64,000 nt of DNA, taken from the NCBI GenBank assembly GCA_030141605.1, contig JAQGDQ010000019.1, positions 434,001 through 498,000 of the forward strand, read 5' to 3'. The notes under the pieces are model-generated. The model did no database searches. It saw only the letters and a list, made by a program, of their open reading frames with translations, and was not told where the DNA came from. This DNA comes from Tubiluchus corallicola (taxonomy: Eukaryota; Animalia; Priapulida). Numbering within the stretch: the first letter of the stretch is position 1; every line of letters begins with the position of its first letter. Shown here in pieces: positions 2,448 to 63,999 of this stretch. The translations under genes and the position numbers were made by a program.

Positions 2448-2664
2448 GGCAAATATAATGATGCCACAAAAACGTATCCAACAGTTGTTTTTCGTATGAA
2501 GTAATGGCAGAAATACACAGCAAACCGTCGACACTGGGCAATTGACGTCTAACATAATGTCAATCATTTTTGTTGACTGCCCAATCAGAATTGCTGTAAT
2601 AGCTTTTATTTCTTTAACAAATATTTTGTCTGTTCATTCTCTAGTATACTTGTAACAAACTGGC

Positions 2665-3666
2665 ATGGCTGGGACTGTATTACGAAGAAGCAGCATAAAG
2701 CTAAAAGCACTTAGTGCTGGAAATCCAGATTTGAGCATGATATTATCCCAAATAAAAGAAACTCGACAGGTAACAAAATCTTTTGTTAGTGCCCAAGAGT
2801 CAATGTTCAGCGATATTTTAAAGTGGTCTACAAATGAAACTAGCAAAGCAGTAAAGGACATTGCATCACAGCTGGTTGCCCTAAATTCTCTGTGGTGCGA
2901 TTCTCAGAAGCAGTTGTGTGATTCACTAAAGGAATATCAGCAGTCATTTAAAAAGATACTCGAAGCAGAGAAAGAGCTTAGTCAAGCAAAAATAAGAGTT
3001 AACACATGTGAAAAGCAAGAAATTGCAATAAAGAAACAGTTGAAGAAAATGTCCAATTCTAGAAGAACAACTGCAGAAGAACTGCACAATCTAAATGAAA
3101 AACTTGTGGAAGCAGAGAGGTTGAAACATTTGTCCAAAGCTGAACTGGCTGAAAGAGAAAATCAAACAGAAGAGACAAAACTTATCCAGTTTCGCAAAGG
3201 ACTTCTGCAGTTATCAGAAAGCTATGTAGAATTTGGAAATAAGTGTGCGATAGTTTTTACTTCTCAAGGAGATATGTCTTTGCACATTCCTGAGTGCCGC
3301 ACATGTGAGTACAATGGCTTCCATGTAACTCAATCTCTCGTACAGGAAGCAAAGTTAAAAATATCAGAATACAGAAATCCACGAGCAGCAGAACAGAGCA
3401 GAAATGTACCTTCTTCTCCACCACCTCCTTACAATCCAGAGTTTTCTCCAATTCAACGCACTATGTCATTACCGAGGCCAAGATCTCGTAGGAATCACAA
3501 CACACAAGAAATTGCAAGCCACGGACATTACCTTGAACAAGCTCAACAGTCTTATTATTGCCAGTGTCAACGGAATTCGATTCATCAGTATTCCACTAGA
3601 AATAGGAGACATCCTCGAGATAGTAGCTGGGAAAATTGTCACTATAGCCACGCTACCGGTACCTAA
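2665..3666 (+). CDS. BAR-domain protein resembling eisosome Pil1/Lsp1, with a disordered tail carrying a PPxY motif (333 aa, single coding exon)
   Basis: Long ORF with a good start context (GGCATGG). The N-terminal ~210 aa are helical/coiled-coil, with LKWS..VKDIASQL..LKEYQQSFKKILEAEKEL..LNEKLVEAER..YVEFGNKCAIV in the same order and spacing as Pil1/Lsp1 blocks. The tail contains SSPPPPYNP. The gene call is firm; the family call is moderate. Confidence 0.75.
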   Translation: MAGTVLRRSSIKLKALSAGNPDLSMILSQIKETRQVTKSFVSAQESMFSDILKWSTNETSKAVKDIASQLVALNSLWCDSQKQLCDSLKEYQQSFKKILEAEKELSQAKIRVNTCEKQEIAIKKQLKKMSNSRRTTAEELHNLNEKLVEAERLKHLSKAELAERENQTEETKLIQFRKGLLQLSESYVEFGNKCAIVFTSQGDMSLHIPECRTCEYNGFHVTQSLVQEAKLKISEYRNPRAAEQSRNVPSSPPPPYNPEFSPIQRTMSLPRPRSRRNHNTQEIASHGHYLEQAQQSYYCQCQRNSIHQYSTRNRRHPRDSSWENCHYSHATGT

Positions 3667-6511
3667 GCATCTTGCGATGGGTGCTGTGATGTTATTTTTG
3701 CCTGAGCTGCAAGTTACATGTTTAAGCGAGTACTTGGTAATGAGTGTAACTACAGATAATGCAACTAATGTTACATGATCTTTAAAGTGGAACCGAAATC
3801 CTAAAAGTGAAATTGACTGCTGACTCTGTGAAAACGTGGAGTATGGACTATTTGTAGTCAATTAAGTTCTAGTGGCTCGAGTGACTGTGAAGTAATAACT
3901 GTTATCTCATAAACACACCAAACTAAAAATAACTTGATTTTGTTTTATCTTGTAAAAAACTAACGAAGCTAATACTAGATGTCTATTTGCACCAAGCAAG
4001 TGGCTATATAAGGAAGACTTCAGTTGCTGCGGTATTGCCATAATGGTGCAATTACGTATTGTGATAGCTGTACAGAGTCTGTTTTTATGACATTTGTGCA
4101 TCGTGAAAATAAATTTATATATAGCTTTAACTTGCTTTTGCAAATTAACTGAACTGATTATAATAGATTCATACTTACAGCATTGTTTAAATATTTTTAT
4201 TTGCACAATTTTAACTTTGCAACTTCCTTATAGTTTATTCATTTCTACATATGTTTTATTGTGTTTTGTAATGAGCTGTGTTAGCATGCTTGGTACTTGA
4301 AGCAATTTCTTTTTACATATTAGTAGTATATGTATGCGCCACTGTAATAAGACGTTAAACTAGTAAGTGTATTATTATTATTAATGGCTTATTTTGCGTT
4401 TATGTAACATACGTTGAACTCATCAATTATGCAACGCAATTGTCTCGAAGAATTAAATGAATTGAAATTATTAGAAATTTTTTTAAACATTTGTAATATC
4501 TTGTCTGTTGGTATAGAAAATGTACAAAAATATCTAGGTTTTGATATTTTACGTCTAGTCAGAAATTAAACGAACCTTGTAAATTTCAATATAATGGAAT
4601 GATTTGCCTTTTTCTTTTGTCTTTATTTTAAATCGATATTATATAACTAAAAGCATATTATTTTAGCAATACTGACATAGAACCTGTACTCGGCACACAA
4701 AGTATGCCAAATGCTAAAGGAAAACCAGACACCATCTTAAACTATAACTCAAATTAAACTACCCTGTAAAATATTAAAAGAGAACATACTATTTTACAAG
4801 AATGACATACGTGAAAGAATTATCAGTACAGAATGGTAATTTTGCATTCACGTGGTTAGTTCTTCACTGTTACGTGCTTTTTGCTTTTCCCTAATTAGAT
4901 GGGCACTAGCGACTGCATCTCGGAAACAGATGCTGTACTTCCCAGTTCAGTTGTGATATAGTGTTCGCGTTCAAGAGCTCATGCATGGACAAAGTAGTAA
5001 ACTTTAAATCTGAATTTTAAATTCAGAAATTGCGCAGTTTTTGTGTATCACACCAAATGTTGTTCGGTAACACTGTATTTCGATTTTTGCTTTCACCAAC
5101 ACGTGCTGCATGCTCGTGGAATGCTTGTGTTGTTAAAAATTATGTTCTGTTGTGATGTCATCACTTGTTGGGTGTGTCTGCCTTCAAAATGGTGTAGGAT
5201 ATGAAAAATTATCCTGTTTTCTTTTAATAATCCTGAAATGCTTACGAACTTAATAAAATAATAGCAATGTTAATTCAGGTTTTTTAAAAGAGACTTTGAA
5301 CTACACTCATTAGCTGCAAGCTATCAATCATATTTGAATATAATTCATCTTGTGCATAATCTATTCAAGCCAAAATACAAATAACATAATATCCACTCGT
5401 TTAGATTTTTGCATCATTCACTCACTAAAAAGTGCCAAAATTGGCTGAACAATTAAGGCTAAACAATTTTTTATTAAATAAATACTATAAAACTGCAAAC
5501 CTAGGATAAAAGACGGAGTTTCATTTACACATTATGGTAAATAAAAAATCATTGCCTTGCCATTGGCAAGAAAATACAATAGTCAACTTGTTCTAGTGTC
5601 AAATGATAAGCACCACACACGTGTAAAAGCATAATTACTTTACAATGGTTTAATACCTAAAAATCATTAACAAAACATTTATCAAACTTTCTCACTTGAC
5701 TAAATGTACCCTGCAACAGCATAGGCTTATGCCAATCACTTAAGTTCATTTCATTTATGTCGGTCACTTTTGAACTATTTTTCGTATTTAGCTAATCACA
5801 ACCATACATGACTAGTTAGCTAATACAACAAACTGTTGTATAGCACATAATATGGCAAGTTTTCAGTCAAATTAGCAATACTAAAATAGACAAAATAATA
5901 ACAAATAAAAATTACATAACTAGAAATATCACACACTGCAATGTGATGATATTCCAAATATAACAAAACATGTCTTAAGAACTTACAATATATATTTCAC
6001 TGTCTACCTAAAGTTTTCCTGTGCAGAGCAAAAAGAAAAAAAATACCAAAGTGGAAAAACAAAATGATCATTTCTTTAAAAATTAACAAACAAATTAAAC
6101 ATGTATAATAAAAATCAAACTAATAAGCTGAGACCAAATTTCTCTACTGTCATACATTTCATTGTGAAACTAATCTAAACATTTATACATAGCTATAAAC
6201 TGCTACAAACATTGAGAAACCTTCTTCAAGCATGGTATAATCATAATTATCAAAATAGGACTATTCCAAGATCATTCTAAAATAACATTATAATAAAATA
6301 CCTCCCATCTGAAATGTGAAGGTCTAACCTAGCATCCTGTTTACAATAAACTGTTCATGCTTTAGAAAGCTTTAGAAAGAAACTACAAGGACATATATTT
6401 GAGTATAAAATATTATCCATTTTCAATTTATATCAGTTATAAAATTCCTTACAATTCTAACAAAACACACTATTGTACAGACTGACTGGTGACTAGTGAT
6501 CATGCTGTTAC

Positions 6512-8125
6512 CTAGAAAATAGGTAAAGTAGCCTCAATTTTCTTCACTAATACGGCACAACGATCTGACTTAGTACAGTGAGGTTTCAAGTTTACACCGA
6601 CTGATACAACAATACCAGGCATTTCCCTGCTCATGTGAAAAAAACCAACAAGAGCAGCCAAAGCATAATATGCAGTCTGCTCAGGAAGTTCAGAATTAAG
6701 TGTTTGTAGCAGAGCAAATGATAACTCAACAACAATGTCCTCATAGTATGACATCTGATATCTAGAAATATGCAAGGCTAAGTTAGCAGAAGCCTCCACC
6801 AGTGGCTCATAGTCTGCCAGAAGACTAGTGACAACAGCTTTAATGACCAGCTGACTGTTGGTAACTTGCCTAGATCCCAAATCCCAGTCAATGATTGACA
6901 TCAGCCAGTTCACTCCAGACTTACAGTTGCACATATTACACATCATTTTTATAACCTCCACTTGGATTTCTTTATCTAATTTTTCGAAATCGAACACAAA
7001 GGCCATGAAAGCTTTGTTCTTGTCACCCTTCAACATGAGCACTATATCAAGATTCATTACGGCAGGCTGCAAAAGCTTGATTAGATCAATGTGAACAGCT
7101 GGAGGAAGTTCAGAATGAAGAATTTTTCCTATAAGTTGCATGTGTTCATTTGTGACTGACCAAATGCAATCTTCAGTGGACAAAAACTCATGCAACTCAT
7201 CTAATAAATGCAACTCTTCTTCTGTAAATATCTTCATAGCACCATTCTTCACAGCACAATAATGCTGTGTCACATTTATGTCGGTATAGAATATGGCTTC
7301 ACCATACAATGGTTCGTACATGGCATCAACAGGTAATGGACCTATGGGAGAAACTCTGCCCGACGGATCTGGTACAGGCTTGGGTTGCTGTGGGGCAGTA
7401 GACCCAACGGCAGCAGATGATTGCACGACAGACGGCTGTGAAGCATTGCTTGATGAAACTTCCTCGCTTATACCACCTTCAGTAACTGGCGGTGTATCTG
7501 ATTCACTCTGAGCTGTGGCTTCAGGCTCTCTTTCTGATAAAGATGGCTGCTGCTCCTCTTCCCTAGACAGATTTCCTGTGTCCTTGACACCTTTACTCGC
7601 AGATGTTTGTCTCTGAAGATTTGGTGGTGGAGAAGGAGAATTAGATGCTCTGGTCGGAGATGATGGTTCCGCCATTTTTGACAGCGAATCGATAATGGGT
7701 CCTACCATCGCTCCAAAAGGAGTATCTAAAACTTCCCCAGGTAGATCTAGAATATAGCTAGGTACTGCTTGGCCAGTGAGAAACTGAGCAACTTCGTTAG
7801 TGAACTGATTACAATTATGACTCAATAAGTTATAATTCTTCCCATTGTAAGATTCATCAGCCAGTCCATCTAAGTATTCAGCAAATAAATCCCAAGGAAG
7901 GTCAGTAGTCCCCAAATCGTGTACCGTGTCCGGTGCTCCTAAGATTGTTGTTCCAGGAGCACAGCTTTGTATACCTGCTCCTCCGTAGAAAAACTCCTTG
8001 CCATAAACGACGATTCCCGTATGCCAAATACCATCCAACTGCTTACCCAAGAATGCCTGGGACATTGACTTCGCAAGTCCTCTGGACAAATCATAGATAT
8101 GTAGTTTCACACCTACACACGACAT
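6512..8125 (-). CDS. DESI1: DeSI-1-like (PPPDE) desumoylating/deubiquitinating peptidase with an S/P/E-rich linker and a PUL-like helical C-terminal domain (537 aa, intronless)
   Basis: VKLHIYDLSRGLA..GKQLDGIWHTGIVVYGKEFFYG..YNLLSHNCNQF gives the PPPDE catalytic His and Cys. The first ATG is at 8125; the ORF track starts at a TTG three codons upstream. The C-terminal ~260 aa have an ARM-like helical pattern (MMCNMC, ASANLALHI). Confidence 0.9.
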   Translation of the reverse strand: MSCVGVKLHIYDLSRGLAKSMSQAFLGKQLDGIWHTGIVVYGKEFFYGGAGIQSCAPGTTILGAPDTVHDLGTTDLPWDLFAEYLDGLADESYNGKNYNLLSHNCNQFTNEVAQFLTGQAVPSYILDLPGEVLDTPFGAMVGPIIDSLSKMAEPSSPTRASNSPSPPPNLQRQTSASKGVKDTGNLSREEEQQPSLSEREPEATAQSESDTPPVTEGGISEEVSSSNASQPSVVQSSAAVGSTAPQQPKPVPDPSGRVSPIGPLPVDAMYEPLYGEAIFYTDINVTQHYCAVKNGAMKIFTEEELHLLDELHEFLSTEDCIWSVTNEHMQLIGKILHSELPPAVHIDLIKLLQPAVMNLDIVLMLKGDKNKAFMAFVFDFEKLDKEIQVEVIKMMCNMCNCKSGVNWLMSIIDWDLGSRQVTNSQLVIKAVVTSLLADYEPLVEASANLALHISRYQMSYYEDIVVELSFALLQTLNSELPEQTAYYALAALVGFFHMSREMPGIVVSVGVNLKPHCTKSDRCAVLVKKIEATLPIF

Positions 8126-63297: not shown

Positions 63298-63999
63298 TCA
63301 TACTAAAGGATCAGCTTGCAACACATTAAGAACATCGGATGATCTCCTTAACCAAACATCCTCAACTTCTTCTTCTTTGCTGTAAGGTGACGTGGATAAT
63401 TCACGTTCTTCATCAGCAAACAATAGTGTTGAGCTCGTGGGCACAGATGAACTTGCTGATGTTTCTTTATGGTGCAAAACCACCCCGGAATAACGAGGTT
63501 TGTAGCGATGGTGGTAGTGGTGATGGTGATGATGGTGGTGGTGGTGATGGTAGTGGTAGTGTGGTGATAAGCTCCTTTTTGACACATTCAGGGGTTCTAA
63601 TTCATGACTCTCGCTGCTCAGCGTTGTCACATGACTAGGGTTACCACCTAAAGCACAACTTGATGAACTTAAAGTTGATTCAGAAAAAGCTGCAGCATGA
63701 TAAACGGTTTTGTCAATGTGCCGAGGTGGAGTAGAACAGCACTCTAACTTAGGCCAATAAAATTGCAAAAAATCATTTTCTGGTCCTGCTAAAACCAAAA
63801 TTGATTGGAAAAGAAATGTTGCAAAAAGCCAACTAGCTGCCATAATAATGATGAGAAACAGTCCTAGCTGTTTGTAACCAAGAACGTTAGCTGGCAATAA
63901 AAATATTCCTGCCACAAAGGTGGTGAATGCAGCCAAGGCAACAGGGCTACCAATGCGACTAAGCGAAAATTTAACACAAGCTCTGCGATCATCTTTATC
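63298..63999 (-). CDS. DISP: Dispatched (Hedgehog-releasing RND/SSD transporter), 3' end; the frame is open to the window edge
   Basis: SLSRIGSPVALAAFTTFVAGIFLLPANVLGYKQLGLFLIIIMAASWLFATFLFQSILVLAGP matches the last two TM helices of Dispatched; a Ser/His-rich tail follows. Confidence 0.88.
   Translation of the reverse strand, partial: DKDDRRACVKFSLSRIGSPVALAAFTTFVAGIFLLPANVLGYKQLGLFLIIIMAASWLFATFLFQSILVLAGPENDFLQFYWPKLECCSTPPRHIDKTVYHAAAFSESTLSSSSCALGGNPSHVTTLSSESHELEPLNVSKRSLSPHYHYHHHHHHHHHHHYHHRYKPRYSGVVLHHKETSASSSVPTSSTLLFADEERELSTSPYSKEEEVEDVWLRRSSDVLNVLQADPLV

Follow-up and report, generated by a model that had tools for sequence, protein, structure and literature searches.

The window, i.e. 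the whole stretch of 64,000 nt of Tubiluchus corallicola DNA that was analysed, carries on its forward strand an uninterrupted ATG-to-stop open reading frame (ORF; 2665-3666) coding for 333 amino acids; the coordinates of this gene and of its features are collected in Table 1. An intact, single-exon ORF had been called here in the original prediction. Its intactness stood, but not its span: positions 2665-3300 correspond to the first 212 codons only of the full frame. An in-frame stop is found three codons 5' of the ATG (the stop-to-stop frame starts at 2656) and, as judged from the alignment, the start site is common to the protein and its relatives; the N-terminus of the 333-amino-acid protein is therefore complete.

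Table 1. Features of the BAR protein gene and of its product (positions are those of the window)
Feature	Position	Strand	Basis
Candidate 3' splice acceptor (pyrimidine tract and AG), 20 nt 5' of the ATG	2620..2644	+	Sequence only
Single-exon CDS, 333 aa, holozoan Pil1/Lsp1-like BAR protein	2665..3666	+	Contigs of runs X1, X2 and X3 each span it without frameshift
N-terminal basic helix (residues 3-17), predicted as likely membrane-inserting, at the place of the Pil1 amphipathic helix 39-48	2671..2715	+	Models; alignment to Lsp1 from residue 37
Predicted Pil1-type BAR domain (residues 21-234): three long helices, loop, fourth helix	2725..3366	+	AlphaFold2 model
Helix 2: insertion of seven residues compared with fungal Pil1 (about residues 111-117); forms a pair with that of helix 3	2995..3015	+	Alignment gaps; similar gaps in Capsaspora
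Helix 3: insertion of seven residues compared with fungal Pil1 (about residues 168-174); contains the near-invariant K172	3166..3186	+	Alignment gaps
PPxY motif (residues 253-256), predicted WW-domain docking site	3421..3432	+	Sequence motif
C-terminal tail (residues 260-333), likely disordered, fast-evolving	3442..3663	+	pLDDT 43-58
Candidate polyadenylation signal, the sole AATAAA within 3661-4600	4108..4113	+	Sequence motif only

A single contig runs through the ORF into its 3' flank, at the depth of the neighbouring gene (14.9 in run X1, which may be the source of the 64-kb window), and a run from a second study holds positions 2618-3728 with two differences in 1111 nt and no frameshift. 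The GC3 value of the gene is 0.32, versus 0.30-0.39 in three neighbours. The neighbours named in the original prediction proved to be genuine animal genes: SPRED (its EVH1 exon matches SPRED2 at E = 1.6e-11 and the Sprouty domain was also found), EXOC5 (match to the Sec10_HB domain) and Dispatched (E = 6e-21). Since contig depth, second study, GC3 and animal neighbours agree, we concluded that ORF 2665-3666 is a resident animal gene and not a contamination.

The surroundings of the gene show a few other features. The last Dispatched exon (63301-63999, reverse strand) encodes a long histidine run in the cytoplasmic tail. Convergent with the BAR gene is an intronless gene of 537 amino acids (6512-8125, reverse strand) specifying a PPPDE/DeSI peptidase (Pfam Peptidase_C97, E = 2e-44) with a weak PUL domain (E = 1e-4); the two are adjacent intronless genes among otherwise spliced ones. 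At 2044-2448, 200 nt upstream of the ATG, about 219 bp are duplicated in tandem (two 186-nt copies, 92% identical), and a short element of very high copy number, at which the genomic contigs show many loose ends, occupies 2540-2588 just 5' of the BAR gene. Other high-copy stretches are found near 1-600, 860-1370 and 4500-5400.

The acceptor-like sequence in front of the ATG suggests the existence of an intron in the 5' UTR; no spliced contig or splice joint for the BAR gene was found among the sequencing-run contigs examined. Within the coding region, the matches given by the truncated gene calls of relatives stop in clusters near residues 80-89 and 210-219. This is a hint that most holozoan relatives are spliced, whereas the Tubiluchus copy is single-exon, and for that reason its single-exon state looks derived; it may have arisen by intron loss or by retroposition. 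There is no second copy of the gene in the 64-kb window, nor any second full-length copy, at a level of at least 80%, in the contigs of run X2. Run X6, which bears the same species label but comes from a diverged relative, and which we guess to be RNA, gave two short contigs in the ORF (2993-3146 and 3534-3667) and none in its flanks. The first of them has a 3-nt in-frame insertion, and four of its seven listed differences are synonymous; the second has a 7-nt insertion in the tail. The confinement of these contigs to the ORF is a weak hint of expression.

The likeness to the Pil1 and Lsp1 proteins of yeast had been proposed from five colinear blocks aligned by eye. All five were found in register with the profile alignments to the solved Lsp1 and Pil1 structures and with the fungal profile-profile alignment: W54, D65 and E102 of the query, for instance, correspond to W89, D99 and E136 of Pil1. 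Pfam Pil1 (PF13805) was the best of the six families listed for the query, with 21.5 bits (E = 1.9e-4), a value below the 27-bit gathering cut-off; FAM92 (PF06730) gave no Pfam match at E ≤ 10. No Pil1 or Lsp1 chain came up at E ≤ 10 in a phmmer search of the PDB with the query, and word-indexed protein searches yielded one match for the query protein and four for the alignment. Identity to a Pil1-like fungal protein amounted to 33 of 229 aligned positions (about 14%). The fungal set was drawn from metagenome loci, 24 of 118 having a long enough open frame (23 distinct sequences); the query scored 6.5 bits against the profile of these 23, the best of 500 heptad-block shuffles reaching 6.0. Taken alone, the pairwise likeness of the query to Pil1/Lsp1 is weak and marginal; its significance comes from the family and from the fold.

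An exhaustive search with residues 1-245 retrieved 191 representatives at E ≤ 1e-3, 87 of them at 1e-10 (150 of the 191 are listed). With so many relatives, the idea that the Tubiluchus lineage is special had to be abandoned. In a 65-row alignment of the family, Pfam Pil1 is matched by 26 members at E ≤ 0.01; no other Pfam family is matched by more than one of the 65, and FAM92 is matched by none at that threshold. Six of the 25 members that were scored, and two more in another scan, reach at least 27 bits on Pfam Pil1. Against solved structures, the family profile found Lsp1 (E = 5.9e-12 and 1.3e-11) and Pil1 (E = 4e-8 and 1.2e-7); the next of the 12 chains listed was a coiled coil at E = 0.11, and no other BAR protein appeared at E ≤ 10. 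The Capsaspora owczarzaki protein CAOG_01508 (P0055) acts as a bridge: it matches the query at E = 2.2e-18 and yeast Pil1 at E = 1.4e-14, and scores 84.9 bits on Pfam Pil1. A profile made of the 39 top-ranked rows, without any Capsaspora, sponge or choanoflagellate row, recovered 21 of the 23 fungal proteins at E < 1e-3, with none of the 23 reversed controls listed; aligned to the fungal profile with hhalign, it gave a probability of 94.5 (E = 8.1e-8, 204 columns). In the ESM Atlas, to be taken as a source of leads only, a mostly arthropod cluster came first (0.93), then Pil1 clusters (0.89 and 0.88), and the look-alikes included FAM92-bearing clusters at 0.80-0.84. One of the 25 members, the hemichordate paralogue P0113, has FAM92 as its best Pfam match (E = 2.6e-4, under the cut-off). 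One oddity is the ostracod record P0016, in which a family member is fused to a mitochondrial ribosomal mS25 domain, probably through an artefact of gene modelling.

The BAR domain was modelled with AlphaFold2, without templates, at a mean pLDDT of 95. A Foldseek search with the model ranked Lsp1/Pil1 first (E = 7e-8 to 4e-7), ahead of the next family (9.4e-4) and of FAM92A (4.6e-3, rank 31). Similarly, VIA-align gave a Z value of 18.1 with Lsp1 (3PLT; rmsd 2.2, 208 aligned), versus 13.6 with arfaptin (rmsd 2.8, 184 aligned) and 12.4 with FAM92A1 (rmsd 3.6, 179 aligned), the lead of Lsp1 over the latter being 5.7 Z units. Model residues 1-241 align to Lsp1 37-266, and among the BAR rows Lsp1 alone covers both the N-terminal and the fourth helices. 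FAM92/CIBAR, arfaptin, SNX-BAR, APPL and amphiphysin N-BAR share the BAR fold (Z of 12-14) and, according to the accessible text of PMC11324527, N-BAR proteins also have an N-terminal amphipathic helix. These families, however, align to model residues 15/16-215 or less, are without a matched fourth helix and gave no sequence-profile match with the query or with the 65-row alignment. Comparison with FAM92/CIBAR and the other BAR families, which had been suggested as a check of the original prediction, thus left Pil1/Lsp1 as the best profile match and Lsp1 as the closest structural match of the predicted fold. That the 333-amino-acid protein is a Pil1/Lsp1 homologue over about its first 240 residues can be regarded as nearly certain.

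An antiparallel homodimer, symmetric about residue 191, was predicted with a score of 0.81, the best of three controls being at 0.00; the dimer runs agree in at least 95% of contacts, with pLDDT of at least 84. The mark set for a dimer was attained in 21 of 30 microbial pairs, in 17 of 29 eukaryotic pairs (7 of 16 for animals) and in none of the single chains (23 microbial and 30 eukaryotic). A like dimer, that of Lsp1, is among the solved structures and the positive outcome may stem from a memory of solved BAR dimers.

The range of the family is Holozoa-wide. Thirty of the 150 listed representatives were looked up and 20 had an organism name, all of them holozoan: Capsaspora, Salpingoeca, three sponges, two corals, two hemichordates, five molluscs, Priapulus, four arthropods and one nematode. 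No vertebrate, Drosophila or Caenorhabditis member was seen among these 30 (191 representatives in all). A lobster and eight named nematodes provided further members. With a nematode member as query, 8 of 10 matches were named nematodes, the query itself counting as one of the eight, and none of the 10 was from Caenorhabditis, the search being word-limited. The members from Priapulus (LOC106820830), Littorina, Amphimedon (LOC105314343) and the amphipod Trinorchestia are all uncharacterised database records, the last one already titled 'Eisosome component PIL1/LSP1'. Among the named relatives, Priapulus comes nearest (43% over the domain).

The tree was computed under LG+G4 from 38 rows (30 holozoan and 8 fungal) of a 91-row alignment, from which 14 partial or exon-skipping gene calls had been dropped beforehand; it includes no outgroup family and is unrooted. 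P0142, P0144 and P0145 (corals and one other) were under the coverage filter and are in no tree. The query groups with an 81%-identical relative and with Priapulus (100/100), inside a clade of arthropods, molluscs and priapulids (100/100), and Capsaspora adjoins the fungi. Forcing a query-plus-fungi clade costs 33 log-likelihood units (AU p = 0.000256); a quick 78-row tree placed the query in the same way. Because the query nests among animals and its union with fungi is rejected, a recent fungal transfer is rejected as well and vertical inheritance is the simplest explanation. Of the two origins initially considered, horizontal acquisition by this lineage is thereby left unsupported and retention from an opisthokont ancestor fits both the range and the tree. 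On the sequence data, vertical inheritance of the gene is likely; a much older transfer, dating from the base of Holozoa, is possible.

The tree has an unresolved animal group that leaves out the hemichordate rows and takes in choanoflagellate ones, a pattern suggestive of either two subfamilies or long-branch effects. The hemichordate and coral members P0075, P0113, P0142 and P0145 have the appearance of a second subfamily; the two hemichordate rows lie beyond the main animal group, and the long tail of P0113 has no PPxY. P0071, P0115 and P0187-P0195 constitute a fast-evolving nematode branch with PPxY tails.

Compared with Pil1/Lsp1 of Saccharomyces cerevisiae (PF13805; PDB 3PLT, 8QB7, 8QB8 and 8QB9), the query has the BAR domain over its whole length, the preceding helix, the loop and the fourth helix, as well as conserved equivalents of L58, K66, W89, D99 and E136. 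The functional sites were mapped through a fungal protein (L079), with the numbering of yeast Pil1. The accessible text of PMC11324527 describes in Pil1 a PI(4,5)P2 pocket (R126/K130/R133), a phosphatidylserine site (R43/K66/R70), an amphipathic helix (39-48) and three lattice contacts: residues 1-8, residues 171-186 with 145, and Y155/Y158 at the tip. At the PI(4,5)P2 triad the query has Q92, K96 and L99, i.e. one basic residue out of three. The triad is entirely basic in 23 of 23 fungal rows versus 1 of 68 holozoan rows, that of Capsaspora, a family member with no PPxY tail in the alignment. In the holozoan rows, the K130 position is a glutamate in 42 and the R133 position a leucine in 49; the equivalents of K66, R126 and K148 are basic in 47, 45 and 55 of the 68, respectively. 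At the phosphatidylserine site, K66 is kept as K31, and R70 is replaced by Q35, with a conserved R34 one residue earlier (basic in 78%); the R43 equivalent is not alignable by sequence. The N-terminal lattice segment is absent, the L58 equivalent being preceded by 22 residues versus 40-60 in most fungal rows. The tip tyrosines are without counterpart and the 171-186 stretch of helix 3 is only partly alike. The proposal of an eisosome-like scaffold is therefore partly weakened, two of the three pocket residues and the N-terminal lattice contact being missing. We file the protein as a divergent holozoan branch of Pil1/Lsp1, and not as an eisosome core protein, because it scores under the Pfam cut-off and because two functional membership tests gave a negative outcome.

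Other parts of the protein are conserved in the family. The putative membrane-inserting helix was modelled at pLDDT 54-73; residues 1-20 have a net charge of +4, and R7 and R8 are basic in 74 and 79% of the 68 rows. Its hydrophobic moment (0.42 versus 0.40 in a fungal Pil1-like helix) makes it only modestly amphipathic. It contains a conserved Arg-Arg-Ser (2683-2694, residues 7-10), which we take to resemble a basophilic kinase site. Yeast Pil1 is regulated by phosphorylation and, by analogy, phosphorylation at residues 7-10 could switch membrane binding. In helices 2 and 3 the query exceeds its fungal counterparts by about seven residues each, and the arms would therefore be longer by one heptad. 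Conserved basic positions are K124 (94%), K128 (91%), K172 (99%) and R177 (94%), and the net charge of residues 1-240 is +7. The best-conserved residues include positions of the predicted dimer interface (L23, W54, E169, K172 and P209).

Another difference from the fungal proteins is the tail, which in the model has no helix beyond residue 245. It is identical to that of the nearest relative at 52 of 75 positions, versus 218 of 258 upstream. PPxY motifs are docking sites of WW-domain proteins. One is present in 56 of the 61 tails of at least 30 residues found in the 68 rows, versus a mean of 6.1 and a maximum of 13 in 200 shuffles, and in 1 of 23 fungal proteins. Adaptors of the Nedd4/Rsp5 HECT ligases, such as the arrestin-related trafficking adaptors and Ndfip, similarly display PPxY in a disordered tail beside a membrane-associated domain; here, in contrast, the predicted motif is joined to a Pil1-type BAR domain.

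The explanation that we favour, with moderate confidence, is that of an intact animal gene, likely inherited vertically, for a distant Pil1/Lsp1 homologue which would form a membrane-curving dimer and whose PPxY tail is predicted to recruit Nedd4-type ligases. The basic N-terminal helix would insert into the inner leaflet like the amphipathic helix of Pil1 and, together with K31 and the lysine-rich tip of helix 2, would bind anionic lipid, presumably with less specificity than the fungal pocket. The dimers would induce or stabilise membrane curvature, at the plasma membrane or on endosomes, in assemblies that may be smaller or differently packed than the fungal lattice. PPxY would then bring a WW-domain HECT ligase to that membrane, where it could control the turnover of the scaffold or of nearby transporters. 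A true animal eisosome, in which a Pil1-like lattice supports stable furrows of the plasma membrane as a buffer against tension, under a cuticle for instance, appears rather unlikely. It would account for the structural match over the whole length, including the N-terminal and fourth helices, for the frequently basic equivalents of K66, R126 and K148 and for the full triad of Capsaspora; moreover, nematodes have members as well as PIP2-rich epidermal folds whose scaffold is unknown (accessible text of PMC10010689). The glutamate and leucine that prevail at the K130 and R133 positions speak against it, as do the failing conservation of two out of three lattice contacts known from the accessible part of PMC11324527 and the lack of a Caenorhabditis member among the 10 matches of the word-limited search.

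Alternatively, the Pil1-derived domain could have become a soluble dimeric adaptor that presents PPxY to WW-domain proteins without shaping membranes. The loss of most of the lipid pocket, the strong conservation of PPxY and the place of the dimer-interface positions among the best-conserved residues would all suit such an adaptor, but the basic N-terminal helix, the conserved K124, K128, K172 and R177 and the positive charge of the domain would not, and we give this possibility only a slight chance. As to a fungal origin, by transfer into the lineage or by contamination of the assembly, its one attraction is an intronless CDS when relatives seem spliced; the neighbouring DeSI-PUL gene is intronless too, and the protein is far nearer to animal than to fungal proteins, with its union with fungi rejected in the tree and its gene on a continuous contig, at single-copy depth, beside animal neighbours and present in a second study. 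It is practically negligible. Hardly more credible is that the protein is no relative of Pil1, being a FAM92/CIBAR-type or generic BAR or coiled-coil protein grown similar to Lsp1 by convergence. A pairwise score near chance, the preference of P0113 for FAM92 and the FAM92-bearing clusters of the ESM Atlas would point that way; they are opposed by the failure of FAM92 to match any of the 65 members or the query at the thresholds given above, by the lead of Lsp1 over FAM92A1 in the structural comparison and by the direct sequence match of the Capsaspora member to Pil1. Even when transfer, contamination and convergence are put together, their combined probability is very small.

The evolution of eisosomes was reportedly surveyed by Lee et al. 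in 2015. In the accessible texts, matches to the eisosome core are said to be 'restricted to fungi' (PMC3128537), furrows are extended to microalgae and lichens (PMC6723945), and a 2023 paper, which reports eisosome-like, PIP2-rich folds in C. elegans, states that animals are without direct orthologues of Pil1 or Lsp1 (PMC10010689). The accessible parts of PMC13312728 and of bioRxiv 10.64898/2026.07.03.736083 mention no animal Pil1, and no description of an animal Pil1/Lsp1 family was found in the literature searched, a search out of whose reach most subscription papers lay. As far as sequence goes, the animal variant of Pil1/Lsp1 is real and undescribed, though one amphipod record already bears the name; its function is predicted. 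A family that extends from Capsaspora to arthropods, molluscs and nematodes overturns the statement that animals have no orthologues: a scaffold that animals were said to be without likely has descendants among their proteins, with a changed lipid binding.

To conclude, the Tubiluchus gene is an ordinary, rather divergent member, and the interest lies in the family. It adds a BAR family to the membrane-shaping toolkit of animals and a named candidate for those invertebrate membrane folds for which the scaffold is unknown. It also offers a graded series, from fungi to Capsaspora with its full lipid pocket and to animals that are without the pocket but have a PPxY tail, which lets one ask how a wall-associated tension buffer changed in animals. 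A bolder reading, which we consider unlikely and put forward as a speculation, is that of an animal eisosome-derived domain: from unicellular holozoans to most invertebrate phyla, a Pil1-family scaffold would coat membrane folds under cuticles or stiff matrices and buffer tension, its PPxY tail merging into one protein a scaffold and a ubiquitin-ligase adaptor that are separate proteins in yeast. If this is true, the missing meisosome scaffold would have its candidates in the nematode members of the family.
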